DNA of 64,000 bases from an uncultured Actinomycetota bacterium (GCA_963743915.1 CAVURN010000005.1:320001-384000), one strand, 5' to 3'; shown: positions 4,471-47,534, counted from the stretch's first letter. Made by a program: numbers and translations. Notes: a model not told the origin generated them from the sequence alone.

Positions 4471-5438
4471 CTCACCGCGCAACCTTCGACCGACGGCGAC
4501 GACGACGACGCGCATCCGGGTCATCTACATCGGCGGCCAGGGACGGAGCGGCAGCACGCTTCTCGAGCGCGCGCTGGGTGAGCTGCCCGGCGTCCTCAGC
4601 GTCGGCGAGATGGTGCACCTGTGGGACCGCGGGCTGCGCGACGACCAGCTCTGCGGATGCGGGGAGCCCTTCCACACGTGCTCGTTCTGGCGGTCGGTGG
4701 GCGACGTGGCCTTCGGCGGCTGGGACGCCCTCGACGTCGATGAAGCGGTGTCGCTGCGCTACGCGGTCGACCGCAACCGCTACCTGCCCCTGCTCGCGCG
4801 TCCCGGCCTCTCCCGCCGCTACCGGGAGCGCCACGCCCGCTACGTCGCCAGGCTGGCTCAGCTGTACCGCGCCATCGCCGAGGTCTCCGGCTCACGCGTC
4901 ATCATCGACTCCAGCAAGCACGCCTCCTACGCGATGACGCTGTCCCAGGTGCCCGGCCTCGACCTGCGGCTGCTGCACGTGGTGCGTGACAGCCGTGCGG
5001 TGGCCCACGCGTGGAGCAAGGAGGTCGCCAGGCCGGAGGCGCTCGGGGTTCCGATGCCGATGTACGGACCGACCAAGACCGCCGTGCTGTGGGACGTGCA
5101 GAACACCTTGATCGAGCGACTCAAGCGTCGCCACCCTTACCTGCGGATCCGCTACGAGGACTTCGTCGAGGCGCCCAAGGACGTCCTGCTGGCAGCCGGA
5201 CGGTTCGCCGGGCTCGGGGACGAGGCCTCCACGCTCGACGTTCCTCGACGCGGACACCCTGCGGCTGACGCCCTCGCACACGGTCGCGGGGAACCCCATG
5301 CGCTTCCTCTCCGGAGAGGTGAGGATCAGGGCGGACCGGTCGTGGCGTTCTGACATGCCGACCGGCCGGCAGCGTCTGGTCAATGCACTGACGCTGCCCC
5401 TGCAGCGTCACTACGGCTACCGATCGGCAGACTCGTGA
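4453..5438 (+). CDS. Sulfotransferase (Sulfotransfer_3-like, with a Cys cluster); frameshifts near 4510 and 5245
   Basis: VIYIGGQGRSGSTLL, LCGCGEPFHTCSFW, IIDSSK, HVVRDSRAVAHAW, RIRYEDF, HTVAGNPMRF. Confidence 0.85.
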
Positions 5439-6370
5439 CCATGAGCCCCTTCCCCCGCGTCGACGTGGTGGTCCCGACCCGCGACCGCCCGGAGATGCTG
5501 CGGACCGCCATCACCGCGATCCTGGCGTCGGAGTACAAGGGCGACATCCGGGTCCTGGTCGTCTACGACCAGTCGTCCCCGGACTCGTCACTGGCGACGG
5601 AGCAGTCACTGGGCATCGGCGACCACCGAAGCGTCAGCGTGCTGTCGAACAACCGCACACCCGGGCTGGCCGGCGCCCGCAACACCGGGCTGCTGGCAGC
5701 GGACGCCGAGCTCGTCGGCTTCTGCGACGACGACGACACGTGGCTCCCGCACAAGCTGGCGGCGCAGGTGGACGCCCTCGCGGCGGAGCCGGACGCGGAG
5801 TTCGTCTGCTGCGGCATCGAGGTGCTCTACGACGGGGAGTCGCACCCTCGGGTGCTGGACCTGCGCCACGTCACCCTCACCGACCTGGTGCGTGACCGAC
5901 TCACCGAGCTCCACCCCTCCACCTTCCTCATGCGACGCGCGGCGGTCGTCGAGGGCTTCGGACTGGTCGAGGAGGAGATCCCCGGCAGTTTCGGTGAGGA
6001 CTACGAGCTGCTGCTCCGGGCAGCACGTCGGCACCCGATCCTCAACGTCCCCGAGGTCGGTGTCCAGGTCCTGTGGTCCAGCCGTTCCTACTTCACCGCG
6101 CGGTGGCAGACGATGCGCTCCGGTCTCACCTGGCTGCTCGAGCGCTACCCCGAGTTCGAGGACGTCCCCGCGGGCGAGGCCCGGATCGCCGGTCAGATCG
6201 CGTTCGCGGCAGCAGCGGACAAGGACCGGAAGCAGGGTGCTCGGTGGGCGTGGCGGGCCCTCCGCCGGCGCCCGGTGGAGCCGCGCGCGTACCTGGCGCT
6301 CGCCGTCGCCGGTGGGTTGTCTCCGCAGTGGGTTCTCCGACGCCTGCACTCCGTCGGCCGCGGGATCTAG
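5435..6370 (+). CDS. Glycosyltransferase family 2
   Basis: VVVPTRDRP, GLAGARNTG, FCDDDDTW (DxD), GEDYELLLR. Confidence 0.9.
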   Translation: MTMSPFPRVDVVVPTRDRPEMLRTAITAILASEYKGDIRVLVVYDQSSPDSSLATEQSLGIGDHRSVSVLSNNRTPGLAGARNTGLLAADAELVGFCDDDDTWLPHKLAAQVDALAAEPDAEFVCCGIEVLYDGESHPRVLDLRHVTLTDLVRDRLTELHPSTFLMRRAAVVEGFGLVEEEIPGSFGEDYELLLRAARRHPILNVPEVGVQVLWSSRSYFTARWQTMRSGLTWLLERYPEFEDVPAGEARIAGQIAFAAAADKDRKQGARWAWRALRRRPVEPRAYLALAVAGGLSPQWVLRRLHSVGRGI

Positions 6371-7284
6371 CGGTCGATGATGGTGCGCCACGCCTGCCGG
6401 GACGGCGCGTCCCGCAACCGGTAGTCGATGTTCGGCACCTGCGCATCCCAGTACGTGACGAACGCGGCGTTCCGCCGGTCGGTGTACCGGGCACACGCAT
6501 GCAGCCAGCGCGCACGTCGGGTGCCGTCGTCCCCCGGGAGCAGCCGGCTGGCCAGCTCGGCCACCCCGAACCTGTTCCCCAGTCGACGCGTCGTGCGGTA
6601 GGCGGGGCCCATGAGCTTCCGCGGCGCCATGTACTGAGGGGCCCCGCGTGGGCTGTAGCAGTCCCACCCCATCACGTCGATGAAGTCGCCGGGGTAGTAG
6701 GTGCGGACGGAGCGGTTCGAGGAGCGGGCCGTCCAGCACATCAGGATCAGGGTGGGGTGCAGCTGCGGGTTGTCCACGCGGCGGGCGATCGCGTTGATGT
6801 GCCGCCACGCCGCGCGGTACTGGGCTGCCGAGATCAGACCACGCTCGTGGTCGTCCTCCGGCTCGTGGAAGTACGACCAGAAGGTGGGGCGCTGCTTGGG
6901 CGCGTTCCGGAAGAAGGTCCGGAGCTCGTCGTCGACCGCGCCGCTGAGCACCCGGCCGGGCATCTCACGGAACGAGAGCACCACCGGGCGCCGAAACCCC
7001 TCGAGCAGTCGGTTGAAGGTGTCGCGGACGAAGGGCTCGTACACCCGGACGATGTCCATGCCCCCGTAACGATCGTCGGACTGCCGCACGGCGGTGCGCC
7101 AGTCGATCCCGTCGGACGGGACGCTGGCGCCGAACCGGGTCGACGATCCTCGGCGCTCCAAGCGTGTCCCGTCGGTCGAGGCCTCCGACTCCGTCGACGT
7201 GCTGACGATGAGCGGGACGAGGGCGGCGACGAAGGCCACCGCCAACAGGATCACGGGCAACGTTCGGCGTGCGTGGGAAGTCAC
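6367..7284 (-). CDS. Secreted GH26-like glycoside hydrolase
   Basis: Signal peptide; YFHEPEDD (acid/base), YRAAWRHI, YYPGDFIDVMGWDCY, FGVAELA (nucleophile). Paralog of 8778-10310. Confidence 0.65.
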   Translation of the reverse strand: MTSHARRTLPVILLAVAFVAALVPLIVSTSTESEASTDGTRLERRGSSTRFGASVPSDGIDWRTAVRQSDDRYGGMDIVRVYEPFVRDTFNRLLEGFRRPVVLSFREMPGRVLSGAVDDELRTFFRNAPKQRPTFWSYFHEPEDDHERGLISAAQYRAAWRHINAIARRVDNPQLHPTLILMCWTARSSNRSVRTYYPGDFIDVMGWDCYSPRGAPQYMAPRKLMGPAYRTTRRLGNRFGVAELASRLLPGDDGTRRARWLHACARYTDRRNAAFVTYWDAQVPNIDYRLRDAPSRQAWRTIIDR

Positions 7285-7328
7285 AGGCGAATCCCTTCGT
7301 CGGGGTCACTCTGGGGAAGTGGTCGGTC

Positions 7329-7880
7329 CTAGTCGTTGAACTGGGACTGCGCACGGTCCAGGCCGACGGTCATCAGCGCAGCCACCGCGTCGGCGCACCT
7401 CGTCACGATCTCGGGCACCTCGGGCCGCTCGGCGGCTGCGAAGTCCCGCAGCACGAACGACGCCGGATCCATCCTGCCAGGCGGACGGCCGATTCCCACC
7501 CGAGCCCGGTAGAAGTCGCCGGTGCCCAGCGACCGCCGGAGGGACTTCAGCCCGTTATGCCCGTTATCACCCCCGCCGAGCTTGAGCCGCAGCGAACCGA
7601 AGGGCAGGTCGAGCTCGTCGTGCACCGCGACCACCCGCTCGGGAGTGACCTTGTAGAAGGCGCAGAGCGGAGCCACCGCCTGACCGGAGTCGTTCATGTA
7701 CGTGGTGGGCTTGACGAGCACCACGCGGTGACCGTCGACGCGCCCCTCCCACGTGTGTGCGCGGGCGCGTCGATGGCTGCGGAACGCAGCACCACCGGCG
7801 AGCTCGTCGACCACGAGGTACCCGACGTTGTGACGGTTGCCCGCGTACTCCGGTCCGGGGTTGCCGAGCCCGACGACCAC
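7329..7880 (-). CDS. pth: Peptidyl-tRNA hydrolase (true start may be a few codons upstream)
   Basis: [45 protein letters not shown]; adjacent to rplY. Confidence 0.95.
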
Positions 7881-7927
7881 CCAGGGACGGTCGTCGTCGG
7901 TGACCTCCGGTGGACGGTTGCGCCGGA

Positions 7928-8569
7928 TCAGGCCGGCGGCTCCACCGTCTCGGCCACCACGGTGGCCGCCGCGGCACCTGCGGCCGCCTCGGCCTCGGCA
8001 GCCTCGGCCGCCTCGTCCGCAGCAGCCTCGGCCGACTGGGCACCGAGGATGTGCACGACCACCAGGTCGGGGTCGGCCACGAGCACCGCTCCGGACGGCA
8101 GCGGCACGTCGGAGGCCCGGAGGCTCTCTCCGACTGTCAGACCTTCGACGTCGATCACCAGCTCGGACGGGATCTTGGTGGCTTCGGTCTCGATGCCGAT
8201 GGTGTCGTTCACGTGCTCGAGCAGACCACCAGGGGCGATCTTGCCCTCGGTGCGGACCAGCACCTCGACGGTGACCTTCTCGCCGGTGCGGACGGCCACG
8301 AGGTCGACGTGCTCGATCGTGTGACGGACAGGGTCTCGCTGCACGGACTTCGGCAGCACCAGCTGGGCGCCGTCGTCGAGCTGCAGCGAGAGCAGGGTGT
8401 TGGACTTCTTCAGGGCCAGCATCAGCTCGTGTGCCGGCAGGGCCAGGTGCTGGGTGTCGGCGCCGTGCCCGTACACGACGACGGGGATCTTCTTGTCACG
8501 ACGCAGACGGCGCGCGGCACCCTTGCCGAACTCCGTGCGGCGCTCAGCGGCGATGGCGATCTCGGACAC
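7928..8569 (-). CDS. rplY: 50S ribosomal protein L25/Ctc
   Basis: [31 protein letters not shown]...HVDL; pth-rplY-prs synteny. Confidence 0.95.
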
Positions 8570-8713
8570 GGGCCTTCAGCTCCTGACGACGGTCGGTCGG
8601 TGGGCGTTCCGGCGCAGGTCAGCCCGCGCATCCGCGCCAGCACCGCGTCGATCACGGGCGCCGACCTTCATCTCACAAGGTCGGCACACCCTCGCCGGGA
8701 CCCGCAGAGTCTA
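8570..8713 (-). promoter_or_regulatory. rplY promoter and structured 5' leader (candidate L25 autoregulatory RNA)
   Basis: -10 box TAGACT at 8713-8708; perfect stem GCCGACCTT/AAGGTCGGC (8660-8685) flanked by GGCGAGGG and CCCGTGATCG. Confidence 0.5.
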
Positions 8714-8777
8714 GCCGCGCCTGCGACAGCAGCCCAAATCTGGCCTTCGGGTGACGACCATCACCCGGCGTCCTGGA

Positions 8778-10310
8778 TCACCGGGCCAGGTGGCTGCCGT
8801 ACGTGGTCGTGACCTCGCGCCAGGCCTGCTTGGACGGCTCGTCGAGCAGGCGGTAGTCGCCCCCGGTGGCCACGGCGTCCCAGTAGCACACGAAGGCGGC
8901 GTCGCGTTCGAGCAGCCAGGATCCGATCGATCGCAGCCAGTCACCACGCTTGCTGCCCGTCGCGTCATCCACGCCGAGTCTGGCTCCTGTCTCGGCGACC
9001 CCGAAGGGGAGCCCGAGCTCGCGGGTCGCGGCGAGCGCCTTCCCGTACATGTCCTCAGGGTTGGCATAGGGCGACGTGGAGTGCGCGTAGCAGTCCCAGC
9101 CCATCGCCTCCACCACGTCAGCACCCGGGAAGAAGCTGCTGACGCTGCGGCCCGACTTCGGACTGGCCGTCCAGCACATCAGGATGACGGTGTTGTGCAG
9201 CTGCGGGTTGCCGGCCGCATCGGCGAGCCCCGCGATCCGTCGATAGGCGTCGCGCCACTGCTGCGCCGTGAAGTCCCCGCTCTCGACGTTGTCCTCGGGC
9301 TCGTGCCAGTACGACCACCAGATGTCACGGTCCCTGGGGGCGGTACGGAACCACTCGGCCAGGTAGGCGTCGTGCCGCCCGGCGAGCACATCGGACGGGT
9401 TGGCCTTGAACGAGACGACGACGGGACCGCCCACCTCACCGGCACGGCCGGGCCACCGGCTCGGCAGGCCCGGGTAGAAGACGCGCACGACCTCCATGCC
9501 GCCGTAGGCCGCGTTGGAGTCGGCCAGCGCCTGGGACCACGAGCGTCCCTCCTGGTCGACGCTGGCCCCGAACAAGGTGCTGCCGTCCGCCGGCCCCTCG
9601 GTCGGGCTGTTCGTCGGGCTCGGCTGCGGCTCAGGGGCGCTGGTCGTGGGGGCGGGCTGGCTGGGGGTGGGGGACTCGGAGGGGGTCGGCGACGGCGACG
9701 AACTCGTCCCCTTGACCGGGTGCACCCGCACGCGGTCCACCTTCAGACCACTCAGCGAACGGAAGGCGGTCAAGGAGACCTGGAGAGTGCTCCGGGCTTC
9801 GCTCGGCTCAGCGAGGAAGGCGACCTGCCGCCAGTTGTCGCTTCCCGCGGTGAAGCGTTCGCCGGTCACCGAGGCGACCCGGTCGCCCTTCCACTCGTAG
9901 AGGCGGAAGGCACCTTGCACCGGGGCTCCGGTGGCGCGGACCCACGCGGACACCTGGTACTGCACCCCGGGGGCGGAGGTCGGGGCCGTCGCGCGCAGGT
10001 CGCGCAAGGTGGCCGAGGCCGCGCGCAGGTGGAGGACCGCCGCCCGTCGACTGCCCCAGACGCCACCGTCGGTGATGCCCAGCACGTCCCCGCTGCCGCT
10101 CGTGACGTCCCAGTCGGTGAAGCCGTGCTTGAACCCGCCGTTGTGCACGAGGTTGGGCCCGAGCACCCGGCGTCCCAGGGAGTCGGGGTCGCCGACCGGC
10201 GCCGCCGAGGAGGGGATCACCACCGCCGCCACACCCAGACCTGCGGTCAGCGCGAGGGCGGTCGTGACGGCGGCGACGCGGGACGGGGTGCTCGGACTGC
10301 GGTTGCTCAT
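8778..10310 (-). CDS. Secreted protein: CBM4/9-like domain, Pro/Ser/Thr linker and GH26-like catalytic domain
   Basis: Signal peptide; NLVHNGGFKHGFTDW...YQVSAWVRA; PSPTPSESPTPS linker; YWHEPED, MGWDCY, FGVAETG. Confidence 0.7.
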   Translation of the reverse strand: MSNRSPSTPSRVAAVTTALALTAGLGVAAVVIPSSAAPVGDPDSLGRRVLGPNLVHNGGFKHGFTDWDVTSGSGDVLGITDGGVWGSRRAAVLHLRAASATLRDLRATAPTSAPGVQYQVSAWVRATGAPVQGAFRLYEWKGDRVASVTGERFTAGSDNWRQVAFLAEPSEARSTLQVSLTAFRSLSGLKVDRVRVHPVKGTSSSPSPTPSESPTPSQPAPTTSAPEPQPSPTNSPTEGPADGSTLFGASVDQEGRSWSQALADSNAAYGGMEVVRVFYPGLPSRWPGRAGEVGGPVVVSFKANPSDVLAGRHDAYLAEWFRTAPRDRDIWWSYWHEPEDNVESGDFTAQQWRDAYRRIAGLADAAGNPQLHNTVILMCWTASPKSGRSVSSFFPGADVVEAMGWDCYAHSTSPYANPEDMYGKALAATRELGLPFGVAETGARLGVDDATGSKRGDWLRSIGSWLLERDAAFVCYWDAVATGGDYRLLDEPSKQAWREVTTTYGSHLAR

Positions 10311-10475
10311 GCAGGGCTCCTCGGGCCGGGGATAGACGGCTCATCGGAGGAGCGACGGGGGGTGCTTGACGCCCTGACCACGGAGTTGGGCCATGTGGGT
10401 GGACGAATTCGGACTAAGCCGGCCGGGGGTTAGCCCGTGTGGGCGACACCTCCGTGAACGGCGGCGTCGCGCGGG

Positions 10476-34184: not shown

Positions 34185-35144
34185 CTAGCCCGCTTCGCTC
34201 CCGCCGACGTTCCGCCCCGCGAACACGCGAAGCGCCATCCCTTCCAGCGCGGCTGCTCTTCGCGTCAGACGAGCCCCGGCCGGCTTGGCGAGAACCACCG
34301 TGAGCGCCGGAACAGGATCGGCGAGGTCTCGCGCCACCACTCGACGGCCCTCGACCGACTCGTCGTTGTTCGGCCTCAGGTTGAGCAGGCTCCATCCGAG
34401 CCCACGGCCCACCAGCGCCCGCGCGGTCTCCGCACTGCGGGTGCGGTACCTGACCTGCGGTTCCACGCCCGCGGCGGTGAAGGCAGCCCTGAAGTAGTCA
34501 CGGCTGTGCGGCAGGTCCAGCAGGACGAACGGCTCGTCGGCCAGGTCTGCCAGGCGCACCGACGCGGCGCTGCTCAACGGGTGGTCGGCGGGAAGGAGTG
34601 CGTGGGCCCGTACCTCCAGGAGGGGGCGACGCTCGATCGCTTCGCCGAGTCCCAGGTCGTAGGTCAGCGCCACCTCGAAACGTCCCTCGCGCAGCCCGGT
34701 CTCGATGCCGTCCAGGGGCTCCTCGACAGGGTCCACCTCCAACCCCGGCAGCTCATCGGCCACGGCAGCCACCAACGTCGGCACCAAGTAGGGGGCCAGG
34801 ATCGCGAAGCACCCGAGCCGGATCCGTCCCACCAGGCCTTCACCGAGGGCGTGCGCCGAGGTGTCCAGGTCGTCCGCCTGCCGCAGCAGCTCGCGGGCCG
34901 CCACCAGGAGCTCGTCCCCGGACGGGGTCAGTGTCACACCGCGGGCATGGTGCCTGACCAGCAGCTGCACACCCAGAGCCCGTTCGAGGTCTGCCAGAGC
35001 CGTGGACATGGCCGACTGCGACAGGTGGACCTGCTCGGCCGCAGCGGTCAACGTCCCCGCCTCGGCGACCGCGACGAAGTACTCGAGCTGGCGCAGCGTG
35101 AAGCGAGCCCTGGGGCTCCGCTCGTCGGGGGTGGTCACCCGCAC
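34185..35144 (-). CDS. LysR family regulator (HinK-like)
   Basis: FTLRQLEYFVAVAE, LLVRHHARGVTLTPSG, GCFAILAP, LLDLPHSRDYF; last gene of the histamine cluster. Confidence 0.88.
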   Translation of the reverse strand: MRVTTPDERSPRARFTLRQLEYFVAVAEAGTLTAAAEQVHLSQSAMSTALADLERALGVQLLVRHHARGVTLTPSGDELLVAARELLRQADDLDTSAHALGEGLVGRIRLGCFAILAPYLVPTLVAAVADELPGLEVDPVEEPLDGIETGLREGRFEVALTYDLGLGEAIERRPLLEVRAHALLPADHPLSSAASVRLADLADEPFVLLDLPHSRDYFRAAFTAAGVEPQVRYRTRSAETARALVGRGLGWSLLNLRPNNDESVEGRRVVARDLADPVPALTVVLAKPAGARLTRRAAALEGMALRVFAGRNVGGSEAG

Positions 35145-35165
35145 TGCCCGTCGTCAGTCGGCATC

Positions 35166-36655
35166 TCAGTAGCTGATCCAGGTGGTCTTCAAGGCGGTGT
35201 ACTTGTCGAACGAGTGGATCGAGAGGTCACGGCCAACGCCGGACTGCTTGAAGCCTCCGAAGGGCGTCATCGGGCTCAGCGCATCGACGGTGTTGACCGA
35301 GACGGTGCCGACCTTCAGCTGCTCCGAGACCCTCAGCGCCCGTGAGAGGTCGGACGTCCACACCGACGCCGCCAGCCCGAATCGCGTGTCGTTGGCGATG
35401 CTCACCGCCTCCTCCTCGTCATCGAACGGGATCACCGCCAGCACCGGACCGAAGATCTCGTCGCGAGCGATCTCGTGATCGTTGGAGACATCGTCGAAGA
35501 TGGTGGGCGTCACGTAGCAGTCGCTCGACAGGGTGAGTCGATCGCCACCGACCACGAGCCTTGCCGACCTCCGTCCCGACTCCACGAACCTCATGACCCG
35601 GTCGGTGTGCTGGCGACTGACCAGAGCACCCACGGTCGTGCTCGGATCCAGGGGGTGACCCGGTGCCATCGCCTCTGCCTGTTCGACGAGTCGCTCCAGC
35701 AATGCGTCCTTGACCGAACGGTGGACGAGCAGCCGGGAGTTGGCCGAGCACACCTCGCCCTGGTTGTAGAAGATGCCGAACGCCGACTTTGCCGCCACCT
35801 CGTCCAACGAGGTGGCGTCCGCGAAGACCAGGTTGGGGCTCTTGCCGCCGAGCTCCAGCCACACCTGCTTGGCGTTCGACTCCGCCGAGTACGAGAGGAA
35901 GAGCTTGCCGACCTCCGTCGACCCGGTGAATGCGAGGCAGTCGACGTCCGGATGGCGGCCGAGCCCCTGACCGGCGGTCTCGCCGAAACCCGGGAGCACG
36001 TTCAGCACTCCGTCCGGGACTCCAGCCTCGGTCGCGAGCTGAGCGAGCCGCAGAGCCGAGAGGGGGACTGCTCCGCAGGCTTGAGCACCACCGAGTTGCC
36101 GCTGGCCAGAGCCGGTGCGCACTTCCACGCCGCCGTGTCGAGCGGGAAGTTCCACGGGACGACAGCCGCGACGACCCCCAGCGGCTCGCGGCGCACCAGG
36201 GCGAGATCGCCACGACCGGTCGGGGCGATCTCGTCGTACACCTTGTCGATCGCCTCGGCGTGCCACTGCCAGACACCGGCTGCCGCGGGGACGTCCACCG
36301 CCAGCGCGTCGCTGATCGGTTTGCCCATGTCGAGGCACTCGAGCAGGGCCAGCTCCTCGGCGTTCTCGCGAATCAGACCGACCAGGCGAAGAAGCACCTC
36401 CTTGCGGTCCGCGGGGGAGGCGTGGGCCCAGTCGCCCCGGGCGAAGGCCGCACGAGCCGCTGCCACCGCCCGGTCGACGTCGTCGACGTCGGCTGAGGCG
36501 ACATCGCCCAGGACGTCGCCGGTGGTCGGGCTGAAGTTGGCGAACGTCTGCCCCGAGGCGACGTCGACCTGGGCACCGTCGATGTAGGCAGCGCCCGGCA
36601 GCTCGAGCGCTGCGACGCGCTTCTCCCAGTCATCGCGTGTCAGGGCTTGGCTCAT
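35166..36655 (-). CDS. NAD-dependent aldehyde dehydrogenase (PuuC-like; candidate imidazole-acetaldehyde dehydrogenase); frameshift near 36065
   Basis: VPWNFP, KPAEQ, FTGSTEVG, LELGGKSP, NQGEVCSA, EIFGP, PFGGFKQSG. Confidence 0.9.
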
Positions 36656-38740
36656 GCGGATGACTCCTCAGGGGCGAGTCCAGTGACCTCGCGCCGGAAG
36701 GGGACGCTGTCGCCCGTGCGCGGCGGGCCGTCCAGCTCTTCGGCGTACTTGTGTCCTTCATAGACGGCTGCGGCGATCGTGGCGGGGGCGAAGGCGTCGC
36801 CGATCGCACGGACACTCAGCAGCCCGGCGTCCGTCCACTCACCGCTGCGAGCGTTGAGGCCGGTGAACAGCTCGTCGCGCGGCAGGCGAGCCGTCACCAT
36901 CACGACCGCGTCGGCGGGCACCGCCTCCTCGCGTCCGGTGTACGCGCAGGCCAGGGTGACCTCCCCGTCCCCCATTGCGGTCAGCGTTCGCGCCGTTCGC
37001 ACCTGCACGCCGGCGTTCAGCACCCGCTCCTGGATCCGGATGATCTCCAGCGTGTTGTTCGTCCAGCTCGACACCTGTGCCGCCGGCGTCACCAGCTGGA
37101 CGTCGTACCCCTCCGCCGCGAGCAGCTCGGACAGGACACCCCCCATGTAGTAGTGGTCGTCGTCGAAGACCACGACACGTGGGCCGGAAGGACGCTCCCC
37201 CGACATCAGGTCGTCCGGGGTCAGCACCGGCAGTGATCCCGCGGTGGGGACCGGGGTCAGGTGCCAGCGACCGATGCCGTCGGCGCGCCATCTGGCGCCC
37301 GTCGCCACCACCACGTGCTCGAAGCCGCTGCCGATGATGTCGTCGACCTCCATGGGTGACTCCATGGCGACCTCGACGTTCTTCAGGCCACGGATCTGCT
37401 GCTCGCGGTGGTCGAGCACCCGCACCCACGCGGCCAGACCGGGCAGGCGGGACTCGCGCCAGACGCGACCACCGAGCTGGCGCGTCGCCTCGGTCAGGGT
37501 GACGTCGTACCCGCGTTGGCCCAGCGACTTCGCCGCCTCCAGCCCGGAAGGACCGGCTCCGACGACAAGCACCGAGGTCTCCGATCCGCGCACTTTGATC
37601 CGCTCGGGGTGCCACCCGCGCCGCCACTCCTCACCCATCGTCGGGTTCTGCGTGCACCTGATCGGAGACATCGTGAAGTCGCCGGACACACAGATGTTGC
37701 AGCCGATGCACTCGCGGATGTCCTCGAGCCTTCCCTCCTCGATCTTGCGCGGCAGGAAGGGGTCGGCGATCGAGGGTCTGGCAGCGCCGATCAGGTCCAG
37801 GATCCCCTGACGCACCTGGCGCACCATGGTGTCCGGCGAGGTGAAGCGACCGACGCCGACGACGGGCCGGGTGGTCAGCTGCTTCAAGCCCTTGACGTAC
37901 TCCTCCTGCGCGCCCTCGGGCCCGAAGCGCGACGTGACGGAGTCGTCCTCCCAGGACCCGAGCACGAAGTCCCAAAGGTCCGGGTGCTCAGCGAGCTCGG
38001 CGACGACCTCCTCGATCGCCGCGCGGTCGATCCCGCCGTCACCGAGCAGCTCGTCGACGGTGATCCGGCAGGCGACCGCCGCCTTGCCGTCACACGCCTC
38101 CCGGGTGTCCTCGAGGATCTCGCGCAGCAGCCTCATGCGGTTCAGGGTGCTGCCGCCGTACTCGTCGGTCCGCTGGTTGTAGCGCGGACTCAGGAAGTGG
38201 TGGATGCCTCCCAGCGCGTGGCCGGCATACACGTACACGATGTCGTAGCCGGCCTCGATCGCACGCCCGGCCGCCGCCTTGTGCCAGCGGCGCAGGTCGA
38301 CGATGTCCTGCTTGGTCATGGCCCTCGCCTGGACCGGGTCCAACGACCACGTGGCGACCGGCAGGTGTGCCGGACCCATCGGCGCCTCGCGGCTGTAGAG
38401 GTTCGGACCGTTCATGCCGTTGTAGGTCAGCTCGAGGCCGGCCAGAGCCCCGTGCTCGTGCACGCGATCGGCCATCCGGGCCAGGGCCGGGATGTCCTGG
38501 TCGTCCCAGAGCCGCAGCTCGATGAACGGGCGTGATGTCGGACGAGTAGTGGAACTCGACCTGCTCGGTGCACACCACACCCCAGCCGCCCTCGGCCTTG
38601 ACGCCGCGCATGGTCGCGAGCGCCGTCACGTCCCGGTACCCCATGCCGTTGCAGTGCGGAACCTGGAAGAAGCGGTTGGGGGCAGTGACCGGACCGATCG
38701 GGACCGGTTCGAAGAGGACGTCGTAGCGGGGGTCACGCAT
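36652..38740 (-). CDS. Histamine dehydrogenase-like flavo-iron-sulfur enzyme (TMADH/HADH family); frameshift near 38530
   Basis: NRFFQVPHCNGMGYRD (6-S-cysteinyl-FMN Cys), TEQVE, PFIELRLWDDQD, GSWEDDSVTSRF, RECIGCNICVSGDFTMSPIRCTQNP (4Fe-4S), VGAGPSGLEAA. As I recall it, closely colinear with Nocardioides simplex histamine dehydrogenase. Confidence 0.85.
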
Positions 38741-39929
38741 CGCTGCTCCTCGGCGGGACGGCCAGCAGTCGAGCCCGCTCGTCTGCATCACTTGCCACGT
38801 CGACGACGGTCAACGCCAACGCGGTCGCCGCATCGAGCACGGCGCGGTCGGCTGCGGGCGTCGCGGCGGCGGCGGCGAACTCCGGTTGGTGGTTCACCGC
38901 AGGAAGGGAGTCGATCCCGATGTACGGGTGGATCGCCGGCACCACCTGGGACACGTTGCCCATGTCGGTGGACGCCCGGTTCATCCGGGTCGCAGGGTCG
39001 TCGGGACTGGCGAACCGGCGTCCGAGGCCCTCGGCGTTGGCGACATACCTGGCCAGCACCGAGGTGTCGTTGCGGAAGTCGGCGTACGGCTGGCCCTCGG
39101 ACGTGATCGTGAGCCGGCAGTCGGTGGCCAATGCCCCGGCCTCGAAGCACTTGGCCGCGCGAGCCTCGACCTCACGCATCTGCGACATCGTGGTGCCTCG
39201 TACGTACCAGTGACCCTGTGTGCGGTCGGGGATCACGTTCGGCGCCTCTCCGCCGTGCGTCACGATGCCGTGCACCCGCGAGTCGGACGGGAGCTGCTGG
39301 CGCAGCAGGGCCAACGCCACCTGCGCGATCGTGAAGGCGTCCGCAGCGTTGACACCGAGGTCGGGGTAGGCAGCCGCATGCGCGGCCTTGCCCTCGTAGG
39401 TGACGCGCGAGGTGCGAGACGGCATACGCCTCTGCGCTGTGCGACGTCGACCGGCCCGGGGTGGGCCATCAGCGCCAGGTGCGCATCGTCGAAGGCGCCG
39501 CGGTCGAGCAGCTCGAGCTTGCCGCCGGCGCCCTCTTCGGCCGGCGTCCCGAGCAGCTTCACGCGGATGCCGAGGTCGTCGGCGACCGCTCCGAGCGCCA
39601 GCGCGGTACCGACCGACGACGCAGCGATCACGTTGTGACCGCAGGCATGACCGAGGCCGGGGAGCGCGTCGTACTCGGCGCAGACGACCACGGTCAGCGG
39701 GTCCGTCTCCGCGCACGGCCTCGACCGCAGTGGCGACCCCGTAGGCCTGCGGCGTCACGTCGAAGCCCGCCGACCGCCATGGCGTCGGCCACCCATGCCG
39801 CTGGCGCGCACCTCTTCCCACGCCACCTCGGGGTGGGCGTGGATCCGGTGGCTGAGGTCGATCAGCGCGTCGGCGTCTCCGCTGCGACGACGCGACGTCG
39901 CCTCGTCGCGCACCTCGGTCAGCCGTCAC
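38733..39929 (-). CDS. M20D amidohydrolase (ACY1L2/PM20D2-like); several frameshifts
   Basis: IHAHPEVAWEE, AEYDALPGLGHACGHNVI, GTPAEEG, GKAAHAA, ASTDMGNVS, NHQPEF. Confidence 0.85.
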   Translation of the reverse strand: MTADRGARRGDVASSQRRRRRADRPQPPDPRPPRGGVGRGARQRHGWPTPWRSAGFDVTPQAYGVATAVEAVRGDGPADRGRLRRVRRAPRPRSCLRSQRDRCVVGRYRAGARSGRRRPRHPREAARDAGRRGRRRQARAARPRRLRRCAPGADGPPRAGRRRTAQRRMPSRTSRVTYEGKAAHAAAYPDLGVNAADAFTIAQVALALLRQQLPSDSRVHGIVTHGGEAPNVIPDRTQGHWYVRGTTMSQMREVEARAAKCFEAGALATDCRLTITSEGQPYADFRNDTSVLARYVANAEGLGRRFASPDDPATRMNRASTDMGNVSQVVPAIHPYIGIDSLPAVNHQPEFAAAAATPAADRAVLDAATALALTVVDVASDADERARLLAVPPRSSDA

Positions 39930-40624
39930 CGGGCGTCTCCCGGTACGCCGTAGCTCGGCGAGCTCTCGGGGTCGAGCGCCCGCTACCAGGTAGGCCTGCT
40001 CCTGGGGCTGCCAGACGCGCCAGAGCCGCGCGAGCTCGCCACCGGCTCGTCGTGCCAGTCGACCCGGAGATCGGTCACCGGCCAGGTGTAGACCGGGTCC
40101 GGATCGGCGACCAGCAGACCGGCCGAGTGCACGGGGCCGGCTTCGCCCCCGGCGGCGAGGGCGGCGGCGAGCCCCGCGATCAGCCGCTCTCCGAGCGGTG
40201 CCGATGGGTCGAGCCTGCGAAGGCATCGGCCGCGGCGTCCAGCACCGACGGCGACGACAGCAGGTTGCCGGCAACGACGACCCCGGCGCGCGACGACCTG
40301 GCCGTGCACGCCCAGTGCCTGCTCGACCGGTCCAGGCCGCGGTCGTCGCCGTTGCGGTCGACGGCGGTCAGCTGACGCCAGGCGATGACGGCGCGTGCGG
40401 CTGGCGTCCGACGACGTCGGCCACCGCGGCGTCCGGCTCGGCCCCCGCTCGAGGGCGTCCAGCATCGTCGGTCCCAGACGCGGGTCGGTGACGTTCTGCG
40501 TGGTGACGGCGCCGACGCCACCGCGGACCCAGGCACAGCGGGCCGCGACTGCCGGTGACGACGACGTGATCGCCACACCCATGGCGCCGGTCCTGGCGCA
40601 GTGGCCGCCCACGCTGAACGTCAT
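39926..40624 (-). CDS. DUF1028 Ntn-hydrolase-like protein (HinG-like); frameshifts
   Basis: MTFSV, SSSPAVAARC, VTTQNVTDPRLG, AGNLL, AGGEAGPVHSAG, DLRVDW, SYGVPGD. Confidence 0.85.
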
Positions 40625-41044
40625 GACGCCACCCGACTCGGACGAGCACCGCGGTCACGTCGATCTCGACCAGCCACTCCGGCCGGGCAAGCGCGGTGAC
40701 GACCAGACCGGTCGACACCGGGTAGACACCCTTCAGCCATCGGCCCATCACCCGGTAGACCGGCTCGCGGATAGCGGATGTCGGTGAGGTAGACGACGAC
40801 CTTCACGACGTCGTCCAGACTCGAGCCGCACTCGTCGAGCAGCATCGCCATGTTCGCCATGGCCTTCTCGGCCTGCCTCGACGTCACCGATCGCAACCGA
40901 CTCGCGGGTGTCGAGGTCCTGCCGATCTGGCCGCGCAGGTAGACCGTGCCGCCGGCGACCACGGCCTGGCACAGGTCGTTGTCGAGGTTCTGCTCCGGGT
41001 AGGTGTCGCGGGTGTTGAAGGGGCGGATCGCGTCGGTGGCTCAT
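40621..41044 (-). CDS. RidA/YjgF family enamine/imine deaminase (HinL-like); frameshifts
   Basis: PFNTRDTYPEQNLDNDLCQAVVA, VYLRGQIG, GVYPVSTGLVVTALARPEWLVEID. Confidence 0.85.
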
Positions 41045-42354
41045 GCGCGATCCCCCGAGCTGCACCGCCTGGACCCGTCGCCACACTGGTCGCGAGCTCG
41101 CTGCCGCGGTAGGCCAGGTAGCCGCGCTGCGATCGCGATGTGGTCGGCGACGAACCTGGCGTCGTGCCAGACGCCCCAGATGAAGGACGAGCCGCGCCGC
41201 GACAGCCACGGCAGCCCGAGGAAGTAGATCCCGGGCTCGGTCGACACACCGCGCTGGTGCCTCGGCCTGCCGGTCTCGTCGAAGGCGTCGACCTGCAGCC
41301 AGCCGAAGTCGACGGCGAAGCCGGTCGCCCAGACGATCGACGTGACGCCCGGCGCTCGCGAGGTCGAGCTCGAGGATCGGGTCGGTCACGCACGCCGGAG
41401 CCGGGCCCAGGATGCGCGCGCCTCGGCTCCTCGGGCAGGTCGAGCCCGTTGCGCGCGACGTAGGCGTCGGCCTCGTCGAGCACCGAGAGGTAGTTGGCGT
41501 CGCCGTGGGCGATGTTGTCGGCCAGGTCCGGCGCGAAGGTGCATCACACCGTCCTCGAACGAGCTCGTCCGGCCGACGAGCATCATGCCGCGCGCGGCGA
41601 GGTCGCGGAAGTCGACGGTCTGGCCGCCATGGGCGCCGCTGACCGCGATGGTGACGTGCTCCTTGCCCTGCGGCGGGGTCTCCTCGTCCCACTTGCCGAG
41701 CACGCCGAGCCACCAGACGAAGTCGCGCCCGCGATAGCGCCGCGGCGGACGGTCGTGCGGACCGACCGACAGGTAGACGCGCCGCCCGGCGCGCAGCAGC
41801 TCGTCGGCGATCTGCACCCCCGACGATCCGGCCCCGACGACGAGCACCGCGCCCTCGGGCAGCTGGCTCGGGGTTGCGGTAGGCGCTGGAGTGGATCTGC
41901 TGAGGCCCGGCGTCGTCGGGCACGATCGCAGGAATGACCGGGCGCTGGAACGGTCCGGTCGCGGCCACGACGAAGCGCGCGTCGATGGCCCCGTCCGAGG
42001 TCTCGACGCGGAAGCCCGGCCGGCCGGCGTTCCGCTGCGACCGACGTCACCTCGACGCCGCAGCGGATCGGTGCGGCGATCTTCTCCGCGTAGGCGACGA
42101 AGTAGTCGGCGACCTGCTCCTTGGGAGCGAACGCGTCCGGGCTCGACGTCGGGGAACTCCAGGCCGGGGAAACGGTCGTGCCAGGCCGGCCCGTTGGCGA
42201 CCAGCGAGTCCCACCGCCCGGACCGCCAGCGCTCGGCGATGCGGTCCCGCTCGAGGACGAGGTGCGGCACGCCGCACCGGCTCAGGTGCTCGCTCATCGC
42301 CACGCCGGCCTGCCCCGCGCCGACCACCACGGCATCGACCACTTCGTCCGCCAT
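41041..42354 (-). CDS. Flavin-containing monooxygenase (HinF-like; candidate imidazole-acetate monooxygenase); several frameshifts
   Basis: VVGAGQAGVAMSEHL, RWDSLVANGPAWHDRFP, VGAGSSGVQIADEL, PPRRYRGRDFVWWLG, GLPWLSRRGSSFIWGVWHDA. Confidence 0.85.
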
Positions 42355-42483
42355 CTCGGCACTCCCTGGGTGAGGCTCCGTCGTCCTGGCTGCCTGGCGC
42401 TCTCTGCGCACCTCAGGCCGCTGTCTCCGGCATCCTGGTCGGTCGGATACCCCCTGTCCAACAGATGTTCTCGGGGACTGGCT

Positions 42484-42496
42484 TCGGCTTTACCGA
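42484..42496. promoter_or_regulatory. Candidate LysR recognition box (T-N11-A)
   Basis: TCGGCTTTACCGA with TCGG/CCGA dyad, about 130 bp upstream of the monooxygenase start. Confidence 0.5.
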
Positions 42497-42557
42497 TGTA
42501 GAGGCGGAGGCGGACGCAGGGGTGCGGAGATCACGGAGGAAGGATCACGCGGTTGGG

Positions 42558-42631
42558 TGGAGCTGAGGGGATTTGAACCCCTGACCCCCTCGTTGCGAAC
42601 GAGGTGCGCTACCGGACTGCGCCACAGCCCC
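42558..42631 (-). tRNA. tRNA-Ala (anticodon CGC)
   Basis: Reverse complement GGGGCTGTGGCGCAGTCCGGTAGCGCACCTCGTTCGCAACGAGGGGGTCAGGGGTTCAAATCCCCTCAGCTCCA; G3:U70 pair; TATCCT -10 box upstream. Confidence 0.95.
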
Positions 42632-42705: not shown

Positions 42706-43699
42706 TCAGTCGCCGACGGCGCGGCGGCTCGACTCACCGGTCGGCGCGTCCGAGCGTTCGACCGGCGGGGCCGCCTCGTGCTCCAGCAGGGCGTCGAGCT
42801 CGTCGAGCTGCACCTCCGCGGCGAGCAGGTCCTCCTCGCCCAGCCCGTCGTCCAGCAGTCGGCCCGACGTCCAGGCCCCCGGTGTGGTGAGGTCGATGAC
42901 CTTGATCGGTCGAACCGCCTTGGGGGCGGTCACGTAGGTCGGGAGCGGCAGTGGGTTCGGGGCCCACGCCTCGTCACCCTGCTCGACCGCCGCCGAGCCC
43001 GCGGACGCCGCGTGCCGCTTCGTCTCGACCGTGACGGCCCGCGACGGGCCGGACACGAACCCTGACGCGTCGGGGCGGTCCTCAGCCGGTGCCACCTCTC
43101 GGCGATCAGCCGTCGGGTTCCTCCGGTCGGTGCGCGCGTCGTCCCGCCGCGCAGCGTCCTTCGCCCGGAGCCCGCGGAGCCGGCCATCCGACGGCGCTGC
43201 TTCTGCAGAGCCTGGACGCGCAGGTGGACCACGAAGGCGACCAGCAGCACGACCACGACCAGCGGGTGCCCACCAGGGCACGGGGGTCAAGGGCGCTGCG
43301 AGCGCGAGGACCAGTGCGAGGGCCGCCAGCACCCCGAGGGTGCGGGCCCGACGCTGGGCGAGGGAACGGGGTGGGCGAGCCGGACGTTTGCGCGCAGCCG
43401 GACGCGGCTGTCGGCGGGGCGCCGGACCGCACGGGTCGCTCCGACCGCGGCTCGGGTCGAGGGCGCCGGGTCGGCACCGCGTCCTCGTGGCGGGTCGGCA
43501 CGGGCTCCTCCACGAGCTCCTGGCGGCGTCGGGCGTCCTGCGCGGCCTGCTCGCGGCGCGAGAGCACGCGCATCGCCTGCCCGAAGCGCTCGACCGAGCG
43601 GTTCTCGGAGGCGGTGTCGTGGTTGCGGAGCCACATCGGGATGAGGACGGCGGCCCACATCAGGGCGATCGCTGCATAGATCAGACCGCTTGCACTCAC
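42706..43699 (-). CDS. SepX/GlpR family membrane protein; frameshifts
   Basis: SGLIYAAIALMWAAVLIPMWLR..D...SVERFGQAMRVL, WAPNPLPLPTYVTAPKA, RRAVGD; lies between rimJ and tRNA-Ala. Confidence 0.8.
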
Positions 43700-43832
43700 G
43701 GGACATCACGGTACGTGCGGGTCCGTTCACTTCTCGGTAACGCGGCCGGTGTGTCGGACCCTGGGTGTACGACGCAGAAGGTCGGGCGCAACGAGACCTG
43801 CCGGACGCACACTCGGCGCAGGGAGACCGAGG

Positions 43833-44436
43833 TCAGCTGAGTGGGAGGCGGGTGCGTCGCCAGCGCTCGGCCACGCCCTCGGGGATCTCGCCGGCCAGCA
43901 GCACGTAGACCCGGTGGTCGCGCCAGTCGCCGTCGATGTGCAGGTACGCCTCCCGGTCGCCCTCGTACCGGAACCCCAGCTTCTCGGCCACCCGGCGGCT
44001 CGGCATGTTCTCCGGCCGCATCGCGATCTCGATCCGGTGCAGCCGCAACGAGGCGAACGCGTGGTCGGTCGCCAGCGCCACCGCGGTCGGGATGATCCCC
44101 CGACCGGCGTGGTCGGCGCCGATCCAGTACCCGATGTGCGCCGCACGCAACGAGCCGTAGTGGACGCCTCCGACGGTCAGCTGCCCCACCAGCCGGCCGT
44201 GGTAGGTGACGACGAAGGGGAGCATGCGACCGGCACGGGCCTCGCGGCGCAGCCCGGCGACCATGCTGTGGAAGCCGACGGAGGGTTGGCGGGGGTCCGG
44301 GTTGGTCGCCTCCCACGGCCGCAGCCACTCGGCGCTCGCCGCCCTGACGTGGCGCCAGGCTGCCGGCATCCCGGTACCGGATCGGGCGCAGTCCGACCGG
44401 CCCCTCGGAGAGCGTGACCGGCCACCCCGTGGTCAG
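43833..44436 (-). CDS. RimJ-like GNAT N-acetyltransferase; frameshift near 44362; probable CTG start
   Basis: WPVTLSEGPVGLRP, WLRPWEAT, HIGYWIG...GRGI, LHRIEIAMRPEN.PSRRVAEKLGF, IDGDWRDH. Confidence 0.88.
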
Positions 44437-44924
44437 TGGTCACCCCCGGCGAGCTGGTCGCGCACGTGGGCGAGCAGCGGCGCCACCACGGCGACGCCGT
44501 CCCGAGCGCCCCCCACCGATCCGGGAAGGTTCACCAGCAGCGTGCGCCCCGCGACCCCCGCGACGCCTCGCGACAGCACCGCCGTCGCGACGCCCGCGGA
44601 CTGTCCGGCGGTGCGGATCGCCTCGGCGATCCCCGGCACCTCACGGTCGAGGACGCGGCGCGTCGCCTCCGGCGTCCGGTCGTCGGGTGCGAGGCCGGTG
44701 CCGCCGGTGGTGAGAACGGCGTCGACGCCCGCGTCCACGGCGGCTCGCAGCACCCGCTCCAGCTCGTCCTCGTCGTCGGCGACCACCGTCGAGCGTCACG
44801 TCGCCGACGCCGAACGCGCGCAGCGCCTCCACGACCGCCGGCCCGCGAGCGGTCCTCGTACTCGTGCGCGGCGGCCCGGGTGGACACCGTCACGACGTGG
44901 ACCCGCAGTGCTCGCGTCAGGCAC
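44433..44924 (-). CDS. MogA/MoaB molybdopterin adenylyltransferase; frameshifts
   Basis: [45 protein letters not shown]. Confidence 0.88.
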
Positions 44925-45388
44925 GGTGCCAGTCCCCGGACGCTCCCCCGGTCTTGGTGTCGACGTGCACCGCGTTCACCTCGGCGGCGGGGTCGACCGC
45001 CTTCACCATGTCGATCAGGGCCAGCGCCGCGACGGTGACGCAGGTGAGCGCCTCCATCTCGACGCCGGTGCGGTCCGCGGTGCGCACCGTCGCGCGCGAT
45101 CGCGACGTGGTCGTCGTGCACCTGCAGGTCGACGGCCACACCGTGGATGGCGATCGGATGGCACAGCGGCACGAGATCGGGCGTGCGCTTGGCTGCCTGG
45201 ATGCCCGCGATGCGCGCGACGGCCAGGGCGTCCCCCTTCGGCACGCCTGGACCGCGCAGCAGCTCGACCACCTCCGACGAGACGTCGACCCGTCCGGACG
45301 CCGTGGCCGTACGCACCGTGACGTCCTTGCCGGAGACGTCGACCATCCGCGCGGCGCCGCGCTCGTCGAGGTGGGTGAACTCGCTCAT
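44917..45388 (-). CDS. moaC: Cyclic pyranopterin monophosphate synthase; frameshift near 45095
   Basis: [49 protein letters not shown]. Confidence 0.93.
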
Positions 45389-46611
45389 CCGGCGCGCCGC
45401 TCGAGCATGACCACCGTGACGGCGTCACCCGACGCCACGTGGGTGACGTCCTCGGGCACCGCGATCAGACAGTTGGCGCTGGCCAGTCCCGCGAGCAGGT
45501 GCGAACCGGAACCGCCGACAGGACGGACGACGTAGCGACCGTCCTCGACACCGAGGTCGCCCCGCAGGAACTGTCGCTTGCCGGACGGGGACTGCACGTT
45601 CTCCTTCAGCACCGCCCGCACCGTCGGGCGCTCGAGCGGCTCGAGCGCCTGCATCCGGCGGAGCACGGGGCGGACGAACATCTCGAACGAGACGAACGCC
45701 GAGACCGGGTTGCCCGGCAGGGTGAAGATCGGCGTGCTGTCCGGGCCGACGAACCCGAAGCCCTGCGGCATGCCGGGCTGCATGGCCACCTTCTCGAACG
45801 TGACACTCCCCATGCGTCCGAGCGCCTCCTTCACGACGTCGTAGGCGCCGACGCTGACCCCGCCGGTGGTGATCACCAGGTCGGCCCGGATCAGCTGGTC
45901 CTCGATCGTGGTGATCAGGGTCTTCGGGTCGTCCGGCACGAAGCCGACGCGGTAGGCGGTGGCCCCTGCAGCGTTGGCGGCGGCCGCGCAGCATGAAGCT
46001 GTTGGAGTCCGGGATCTTGCCGCCGGCGATCGGGTCGCCCGGCTCGACCAGCTCGCTGCCGGTCGACATCACCACGACGCGCGGACGCGGACGCACCAGC
46101 ACCCGCGCGCGACCGACCGCCGCCAGCAGCGCGAGCTGGGCCGGGCCGAGCCGCGTCCCTGACGGGGACGACGACGTCACCCTGACGCGCGTCCTCGCCC
46201 TGGGAGCGCACGTAGGCGTCCCGCTGCGGAGCCCGTCGGATGGACGACCTCGACGATGTCGCCGTCGGTCCACTCGACCGGGACGACCGCGTCCGCACCC
46301 GAAGGCATCGGTCCCCCCGTCATGATCCGCGCACACTGTCCTGGGGAGACGGCGAGGGCGCCGGAGTACCCGGCAGGGATGTCGCCCACCACCGGCAGCA
46401 TCACCGGCGACGACTCCGAAGCGCCCGCGACGTCGTCGGTGCGGACGGCATAGCCGTCCATGGACGAGTTGGTGAACGGCGGCAGGTCCCACGTGGCCGC
46501 GACGTCCTCGCTGAGCGTGCAGCCGTGGGCGTCGAGCAGGCGGAGCTCGAGCGGGGAGAGCGTGTCGATGTTCGCCAGGCAGTCCGCGAGGTGCTGGTCG
46601 ACGGACTTCAT
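45385..46611 (-). CDS. moeA: Molybdopterin molybdotransferase (Glp); frameshifts
   Basis: [60 protein letters not shown]. Confidence 0.93.
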
Positions 46612-47534
46612 GAGGCCGCCTGATCTCCTGCGCCGCGCTCCTGCTCGCGCACGAACTCCGCGAGCCACGCGCGGAACTCCGGCCCAGGTCCTCCCGCTCG
46701 CTGGCCAGCCGGACGACCGCCTTGAGGTAGTCGGCGCGGTCGCCGGTGTCGTAGCGGCGGCCGCGGAAGACCACGCCGTGCACGACGCCTCCCGCGTCCG
46801 CCGGCATGCCGGCCAGCGTCTCCAGCGCGTCGGTCAGCTGGATCTCGCCCCCGCGTCCGGGAGGCGTGTCGCGCAGCACGTCGAAGACCGCCGGGTGCAG
46901 CACGTAGCGACCGATGACGGCGAGGTTGCTCGGCGCCTCGTCGGCCGGCGGCTTCTCGACCAGACCGGTGACGGCGAACACGTCCTCGTCGTCGGTGGCG
47001 GTGACCGCCGCGCAGCCGTAGAGGTGGATCTGGTGCCGCGGCACCTCCATCAGCGCGACCACCGACCCGCCGCGGGTCGCCTGCACCTCGATCATGCGGG
47101 CGAGCAGCGGGTCGCGCTCGTCGATCAGGTCGTCGCCGAGCAGCACGGCGAACGGCTCGGCCCCGACGTGCTGCGGCAGCGACGAGCACCGCGTGCCCGA
47201 GCCCGCGGGGATCTCCCTGACGGACGTAGTGGATCTGCGCCAGGTTCGTCGACTCCTGCACGCGGGCCAGGCGGTCCGTGTCGCCCTTGGCCTCCAGGGC
47301 GAGCTCGAGCTCGACGTTGCGGTCGAAGTGGTCCTCGATCGCCGTCTTGTTGCGGCCGGTGACCATCAGCACGTCGGACAGGCCGGCCGCGACGGCCTCC
47401 TCGACGACGTACTGGATGGCCGGCTTGTCGACGACCGGCAGCATCTCCTTGGGCACCGACTTCGTCGCCGGAAGGAAGCGTGTGCCCAGCCCGGCAACCG
47501 GGATCACGGCCTTGGTGGGGCGTCCTGTGCTCAT
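46608..47534 (-). CDS. galU: UTP-glucose-1-phosphate uridylyltransferase; frameshifts
   Basis: [57 protein letters not shown]. Confidence 0.95.

Follow-up and report, generated by a model that had tools for sequence, protein, structure and literature searches.

Gene content and organization of the locus

The window analysed here is a stretch of 64,000 nucleotides (contig C5, 320001-384000) from the genome of an uncultured Actinomycetota bacterium, designated G000 (2.92 Mb, 70% GC, 5 contigs, 90% complete). A Pfam search of its reading frames places seven co-oriented genes on the minus strand between 34185 and 42354. Together they appear to constitute a histamine catabolic operon, in which a homologue of histamine dehydrogenase (HADH) is combined with enzymes resembling those of the Hin pathway of Pseudomonas. 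The genes are given below in the order in which they would be transcribed, followed by the features upstream of them. Insertions and deletions (indels) are relative to the intact operon of G002, a genome of the same genus.

41040..42354, minus strand: flavin monooxygenase, HinF-like, near the TIGR04046 family (Pfam Pyr_redox_3); about 17 small indels
40621..41043, minus strand: RidA-family protein, HinL-like (Pfam Ribonuc_L-PSP); about 6 indels
39928..40624, minus strand: DUF1028 protein, in the HinH position (Pfam DUF1028); about 9 frameshifting indels
38733..39931, minus strand: M20 amidohydrolase of the TIGR01891/HmrA type, in the HinG position but apparently not a HinG orthologue (Pfam Peptidase_M20/M20_dimer); about 11 frameshifting indels
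36652..38740, minus strand: HADH homologue of the 6-S-cysteinyl-FMN/4Fe-4S/ADP-binding type (Pfam Oxidored_FMN and Pyr_redox_2); one 1-nt insertion at about 38531
35166..36655, minus strand: aldehyde dehydrogenase (ALDH), HinD-like, KauB/PuuC clade (Pfam Aldedh); one 1-nt deletion at about 36065
34185..35144, minus strand: LysR-type regulator, HinK-like, intact, 319 aa (Pfam HTH_1 and LysR_substrate)
42460..42469, minus strand: AACATCTGTT, core of a conserved 19-nt box GAGAACATCTGTTGGACAG, candidate promoter or operator, 27 nt downstream of the palindrome
42484..42496, minus strand: palindrome TCGG-N5-CCGA, an inverted repeat that forms a T-N11-A LysR-type box, candidate operator, starting 142 nt before the monooxygenase gene
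42556..42631, minus strand: tRNA-Ala(CGC) (ARAGORN), just upstream of the operon and marking its upstream boundary

Stop/start overlaps of 4 nt join the RidA gene to the DUF1028 gene (40621-40624) and the dehydrogenase gene to the ALDH gene (36652-36655). The ALDH gene adjoins the regulator, with 21 bp between its stop codon (35166-35168) and the LysR start (35144). An earlier note on this DNA had described six co-oriented enzyme genes with overlapping stop and start codons, followed after 21 bp by a LysR gene, and both the Pfam matches and the coordinates confirm that description. Synteny kept across genomes places the arrangement far beyond chance.

In the G000 assembly only the LysR gene is whole; the six enzyme genes are each spread over two or three frames instead of forming one open frame. 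In G002 the whole operon is intact at 80% nucleotide identity, with the seven-gene order and the 4-nt overlaps kept. Its proteins are a monooxygenase of 433 aa, RidA of 140, DUF1028 of 230, M20 of 393, a dehydrogenase of 695, an ALDH of 500 and a LysR regulator of 317.

The histamine dehydrogenase homologue

The dehydrogenase of G002 is 93-100% identical to the in-frame parts of the gene in the window. It scores 1029 bits with the HADH of Nocardioides simplex (3K30), 906 with that of Rhizobium (6DE6), 675 with 6L6J and 524 with trimethylamine dehydrogenase (TMADH). The alignment with 3K30 is full-length, and the Oxidored_FMN, Pyr_redox_2 and OYE-like second domains found in the window frames make up the three-domain architecture of the TMADH family. 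Cys35, which provides the flavin link, and the cysteines of the 4Fe-4S cluster are kept (VPHCNG and CIGCNICVSGD...IRCTQNP), both in the G002 orthologue and in the translation of the window.

Eight residues have been proposed to form the histamine site: Gln65, Ile74, Phe77, Glu79, Asn115, Tyr181, Trp267 and Asp358 (PMC10180351). Seven of the eight, all except Tyr181, are identical in the G002 protein, the positions having been taken by eye from its alignments with 3K30 and 6DE6. The assignment of the dehydrogenase in the earlier note to the HADH type is upheld by the bit scores (1029 for 3K30 vs 524 for TMADH), in an analysis that used such scores and no tree. That it is an HADH-type enzyme is well supported by its sequence.

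The regulator and upstream elements

The best solved relatives of the LysR-type regulator are 6M5F and 3FZV (E 2e-62, 215 bits), with approximately 40% identity over 285 residues as counted by hand from the alignment; the family that follows has a score of 131 bits. 6M5F is HinK of Pseudomonas aeruginosa, according to a table in PMC11495319. HinK responds to imidazole-4-acetate (ImAA) and controls hinD and hinFLHG (PMC8231116). The HinK-like character claimed for the regulator in the earlier note is therefore borne out by its best solved match, and the protein probably senses ImAA as well.

Both upstream elements lie within the 200 bp that separate the tRNA gene from the monooxygenase gene. 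The palindrome is kept 126-142 nt upstream of the monooxygenase in G000 and in four relatives (G002, G005, G007 and G011), at a fixed spacing to the AACATCTGTT box. The box, 115 nt upstream of the monooxygenase start, is identical in the same five genomes. Among 57 upstream regions the exact palindrome pattern occurs in 11, and outside the genus it is not kept at the corresponding position in these regions. The two elements might serve as operator or promoter.

The remaining enzymes

The ALDH matches Aldedh with 565 bits and belongs to the KauB/PuuC aminoaldehyde clade. For the monooxygenase, which is kept at about 80% identity across many Actinomycetota, the nearest NCBIfam model is TIGR04046, with a score of 376 bits that lies below the cut-off of 498. 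Among the best 120 of 8000 scored homologues no HinF-like name appears, and the names given are generic ("flavin-containing monooxygenase", "putative flavoprotein involved in K+ transport"). None of the seven proteins has a specific NCBIfam model, and the DUF1028 protein has no match there at all; that of G002 scores 211 bits on PF06267, and its only solved relative is 2IMH.

The M20 protein is of the TIGR01891 "amidohydrolase" type, with HmrA and Xaa-Arg dipeptidase as its nearest relatives. A different M20 enzyme, ArgE-like and in the gammaproteobacterial loci a member of the PRK07522 subfamily, accompanies the proteobacterial clusters described below. The best ArgE-like match anywhere in G000 has 30% identity.

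Occurrence in the genus

Thirteen other genomes of the genus were surveyed, presence being judged among the matches listed (245 weaker matches lay beyond those). Two unpublished genomes, G025 and G033, entered only the synteny tallies and carry no claim. G002, G005 and G007 have the whole operon and G008 a rearranged one, and the copies of G011 and G009 are cut by contig ends. Among the matches listed it was not found in G001, G003, G004, G006, G010, G012 and G013 (completeness 69-99%); for three of these, G003, G006 and G010, completeness is 91-99%. With no copy among the matches listed for 7 of the 13 genomes, the operon is regarded as accessory.

Directly upstream of the operon in G002 lies a second paralogue of the TMADH/HADH family (positions 2-1126 of locus L002), with approximately 67% nucleotide identity to the operon dehydrogenase. 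Similar paralogues are found in G003, G004, G009, G010 and G019, and none is present at the corresponding site of G000. The tRNA gene is probably shared with G002, as positions 1401-1476 of L002 are 76 masked bases that lie opposite the 76-nt tRNA-Ala region of G000.

Interrupted reading frames

The frameshifts mentioned in the earlier note are indeed present. A global alignment of G000 with the intact operon of G002 contains approximately 45 indels, each 1-2 nt long, of which 31 are insertions and 14 deletions; these counts are approximate because they derive from one pairwise alignment at 80% identity. Their distribution over the genes is given in the list above. About 43 of them fall between 38749 and 42149, the others being those in the dehydrogenase gene (about 38531) and the ALDH gene (about 36065). 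They are biased towards insertions and lie outside homopolymers. Unless corrected, the G000 copy is not readable as genes.

The broken stretch extends past the tRNA gene into genes for molybdenum cofactor synthesis (43836-47146). There MoaC is split over two frames (profile positions 1-84 and 82-136), a break in MoeA separates its N-terminal part from its MoCF/C-terminal part, the MoCF_biosynth gene is truncated and begins at profile position 37, and NTP_transferase is partial. Since these genes are broken too, a stretch of poor quality is placed at about 35.2-47.5 kb. Clean long frames are found on either side, at 1-34 kb and 47.5-64 kb, so that the breakage stops sharply at both ends, and rpoB is intact as a single frame of 1163 aa.

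Substitutions private to G000 were counted in an alignment of four genomes, using only those sites where the other three agree. From the monooxygenase to the M20 gene they number 55, 50 and 108 at codon positions 1, 2 and 3 (51% third), compared with 57-59% third in the intact relatives; in the dehydrogenase gene they number 18, 8 and 47 (64% third), compared with 69-78%. This bias towards third positions indicates that selection acted along most of the lineage leading to G000. The 45 indels stand against 213 private substitutions in the segment from the monooxygenase to the M20 gene, a share of indels far above expectation for bacterial mutation.

The broken frames are very probably local assembly errors rather than gene decay, because moaC and moeA are also split, the flanks are clean, the indels are biased towards insertions and the codon-position bias is kept. 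The alternative is that the operon is a truly decayed cluster of pseudogenes, in which some 45 real indels have accumulated as an accessory island is lost from the genome. Not one of the six enzyme genes is unbroken, the operon is accessory (not found, among the matches listed, in 7 of the 13 other genomes of the genus) and it adjoins a tRNA gene, all of which would suit decay. So would the bias towards third positions among the G000 substitutions (51%), which is slightly weaker than in the relatives and counts against assembly error. However, decay of a histamine operon would not be expected to continue into moaC and moeA, which are unrelated to histamine, or to end sharply on both sides; the ratio of indels to private substitutions and the excess of insertions do not fit what is generally known of bacterial mutation; and a clear codon-position bias persists. 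Decay is thus considered improbable.

Gene calls in this stretch of some 12 kb (about 35.2-47.5 kb) should not be trusted. A genome-wide screen for similar patches based on long frames with high GC at third codon positions (GC3) returned 48 "low-clean" patches, which were mostly islands of lower GC (63-66%), so that it gives no measure of frameshift patches. Counting of GC3 phase switches was too noisy to separate broken from normal regions. Twenty sequencing runs contain a fraction of 0.20-0.34 of the words sampled from 36000-42500, which is evidence of neither the habitat nor the correctness of the sequence.

Between the tRNA-Ala gene and a GNAT gene, high-GC frames overlap on both strands over approximately 1 kb (42709-43705), and no Pfam family was matched by any of the three frames scanned. 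In the last 1.2 kb of the window begins a 40-kb stretch (C5, 382802-422997) with 63% GC and open frames of up to 833 aa, which is possibly a foreign island.

Distribution of the gene combination in other bacteria

Gene neighbourhoods were compared at 80 loci with HADH homologues (56-93% identical to that of G002), taken with as much as 10 kb of sequence to either side. A gene was counted where one open frame gave a coverage of at least 80%. Because many loci are short contigs, the counts are floors, and one locus (L009) duplicates G007, being 100% identical over the aligned operon. The monooxygenase, RidA and DUF1028 genes occur together at 22 of the 80 loci, of which 16 are titled Mesorhizobium and 6 Actinomycetota, Actinomycetes or Mycobacterium sp. 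RidA and DUF1028 genes are both present at 30 loci, and 41 loci have one or more of the three genes. All seven genes are found at four loci (L010, L011, L012 and L014), and also at L009, where the ALDH gene is cut by masked bases. An M20D-type gene is present at 7 loci, all from Actinomycetota by title, and an ArgE-like M20 gene at 27, all from Proteobacteria by title, where it typically adjoins the HADH gene.

The 16 Mesorhizobium loci resemble the operon in having HADH, monooxygenase, RidA, DUF1028, ALDH and LysR genes within 10 kb. Identities of the Mesorhizobium and other proteobacterial proteins to those of G002 are 71-75% for the monooxygenase, 61-64% for RidA, 46-49% for DUF1028, 67-74% for ALDH, 36-37% for LysR and 57-59% for HADH. 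The proteobacterial clusters differ from the operon in gene order and in having the ArgE-like M20 beside HADH instead of the M20D-type. A literature search found no publication on these clusters.

A gammaproteobacterial sample was also examined; it consists of 400 genomes from the class of one gammaproteobacterial metagenome-assembled genome, and supports no claim on Pseudomonas itself. Ten of these genomes have a monooxygenase 60-70% identical to that of G002 (59-71% for the monooxygenases of the gammaproteobacterial clusters). In the flanks of those ten, RidA (60-68%) and DUF1028 (45-50%) genes are present in six and a LysR gene (36-37%) in three. One of the gammaproteobacterial loci, L109, has the exact order monooxygenase-RidA-DUF1028-M20. 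In another gammaproteobacterium with 50% GC (locus L107; G335, 3442-10404), RidA, DUF1028, LysR, HADH and ArgE-like M20 genes lie on one strand and the monooxygenase gene on the other. With it, HADH-entry clusters extend to a third class of Proteobacteria.

The earlier note had presented the operon as an actinobacterial hybrid. That the combination is rare or special to actinobacteria is not supported, as the same clustering exists at the 16 Mesorhizobium loci and in other Proteobacteria; with HADH-entry clusters common in two phyla, the operon is no special actinobacterial hybrid. From the sequences compared, what is particular to the actinobacterial form appears to be the single compact operon and an M20 enzyme whose sequence shows no detectable likeness to that of its proteobacterial counterpart.

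Proposed pathway and alternative explanations

Taken together, the genes are probably an accessory catabolic operon by which histamine is converted into aspartate. The steps are assigned from homology and published pathway knowledge. The HADH homologue would carry out the oxidative deamination of histamine to imidazole-4-acetaldehyde, and the KauB/PuuC-type ALDH would oxidize this to ImAA. The HinF-like flavin monooxygenase would then hydroxylate the ring of ImAA. RidA and the DUF1028 protein might process the ring-opened imine or amidine intermediates (of the formimino- or formyl-aspartate type), and the M20 amidohydrolase might release aspartate. Transcription would be controlled by the HinK-like regulator, probably in response to ImAA and perhaps at the TCGG-N5-CCGA box.

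This is essentially the route from histamine through imidazole-acetaldehyde and imidazole-acetate to aspartate that the earlier note proposed. It stands as the best reading because the dehydrogenase is HADH-type, the regulator is HinK-like, and the families and their order match the Hin system (hinF-L-H-G together with hinD and hinK). What is not upheld is the assignment of families to HinG and HinH, which looks swapped, and the M20 enzyme is dissimilar to its proteobacterial counterpart.

Several observations weigh against the histamine route. The HADH of N. simplex also oxidizes agmatine and putrescine (PMC10180351), and Tyr181 of the proposed histamine site is replaced by Leu, the aligned residue being Phe in the Rhizobium HADH. 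The best solved relative of the ALDH is KauB (597 bits). A BLASTP comparison of the operon M20 with the ArgE-like M20 of proteobacterial clusters showed no similarity (E 1.3), so that the step of the operon enzyme is assigned by position only. There is no transporter gene within the operon, and the likeness to HinF, HinL, HinH and HinG is drawn indirectly, from published family descriptions and gammaproteobacterial genomes.

Some of these points would suit a cluster for the degradation of another amine or of an N-heterocycle, such as agmatine or putrescine by way of the HADH and the KauB-like ALDH, with the other genes acting on another ring. Given the substrate range of the N. simplex enzyme and the KauB-like ALDH, these two genes alone would also fit agmatine, and the altered pocket residue as well as the second TMADH-family paralogue just upstream in G002 could be read in the same way. 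Such a cluster is nevertheless unlikely: seven of the eight residues proposed for the histamine site are kept, the regulator is HinK-like, the ImAA route has the same four downstream families in the same order, and the co-occurrence of HADH with this module across phyla is not explained by an agmatine route. That the genes are neighbours by chance and do not form one functional unit is very improbable. The monooxygenase gene does lie apart or on the opposite strand in G019, G008 and G016, and the M20 partner differs between phyla, as chance association would allow. However, 4-nt overlaps join the genes, the seven-gene order is kept within the genus at 80% nucleotide identity, and the core is kept with HADH at 22 of the 80 loci in two phyla.

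If the histamine reading is followed further, the HADH-entry cluster, and not the transaminase-entry layout of Pseudomonas, might be the common route for histamine in bacteria, with the actinobacterial operons having recruited an unrelated M20D-type enzyme for the last deformylation or deamidation step where Proteobacteria use the ArgE-like enzyme. We put this forward tentatively, as somewhat less probable than its opposite. If true, it would offer testable first functions for DUF1028 and for the M20D subfamily, and a genus-specific operator of the HinK type (TCGG-N5-CCGA).

Histamine is both a food toxin and a host signal. Going by those parts of the literature that the search covered, its breakdown in bacteria is genetically defined only in Pseudomonas. 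The operon and its relatives tie a histamine dehydrogenase to ring-opening genes in what appears to be one regulated unit, and two different M20 enzymes are indicated for the last step in different phyla. G002 and Mesorhizobium provide compact intact templates for assigning the functions of DUF1028, the RidA paralogue and the M20D enzyme. The operon extends known biochemistry incrementally and is not a new kind of pathway.

Comparison with known histamine systems

No publication was found that joins an HADH gene with Hin-type ring-opening genes, or that pairs "DUF1028" with "histamine", in a literature search that lay outside most subscription journals; nor did it turn up a published gene neighbourhood for the characterized HADHs. 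With the enzymes themselves, those of N. simplex (3K30) and Rhizobium sp. 4-9 (6DE6), the operon dehydrogenase shares a full-length match, Cys35, the 4Fe-4S cysteines and seven of the eight residues proposed for the histamine site, and it differs from 3K30 in having Leu in place of Tyr181.

The Hin system of Pseudomonas (hinABCD or hinDAC-hinK, and hinFLHG) goes back to de la Torre 2018 and Wang 2021, on which PMC8231116 draws. Pseudomonas putida U requires HinABCDFLHGIJK for histamine (PMC8231116). In P. aeruginosa PAO1 the operon hinFLHG corresponds to PA5393-PA5390 and hinK adjoins hinDAC; hinG (PA5390) is listed as a "probable peptidic bond hydrolase" and hinH (PA5391) as a "hypothetical protein" (PMC8231116). 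HinF is an FAD monooxygenase (EC 1.14.13.5), HinL an enamine deaminase, HinG an amidase (EC 3.5.1.8) and HinH also an amidase (PMC6467879). The window order monooxygenase-RidA-DUF1028-M20 fits F-L-H-G if HinH is the DUF1028 protein and HinG the M20 enzyme. The earlier note had these the other way round, with HinG as DUF1028 and HinH as M20, which looks swapped in view of the PAO1 gene list and the gammaproteobacterial order. HinG of Pseudomonas would accordingly be expected to be ArgE-like.

The operon thus resembles the Pseudomonas system in having a HinD-like ALDH together with a flavin monooxygenase, RidA, DUF1028 and M20 in the order F-L-H-G, and a LysR regulator whose best solved match is HinK and which lies beside the ALDH gene, as hinK lies beside hinD in PAO1. 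It differs in its entry step, which is the HinC aminotransferase there and the HADH flavoprotein here. No HinC-type aminotransferase or HinA-type permease family was found in the operon frames or in the G002 operon, the search having covered these and not the rest of the genome. The genes occupy separate loci in Pseudomonas and a single operon here. The operon M20 is of the TIGR01891/HmrA type, unlike the ArgE-like M20 of the proteobacterial clusters.

According to de la Torre et al., as cited in PMC8231116, hin genes are absent from Gram-positive genomes. Hin homologues and growth on histamine were described for Brevibacterium from cheese by Anast et al. in 2019 (PMC6467879). For an actinobacterium, Hin-type genes were thereby already on record, with a histamine oxidase as the proposed entry. 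Like the present operon, the Brevibacterium pathway belongs to an actinobacterium and includes homologues of HinD, HinF, HinG, HinH, HinI and HinL, several of them with neighbouring locus tags. It differs in its proposed entry enzyme, either a histamine oxidase of the copper/TPQ type or a weak homologue of HinC, and in that the HinG homologue lies elsewhere (PMC6467879). The operon described here is set apart from it by the HADH entry and by an M20 enzyme of another subfamily that is encoded within the operon itself.

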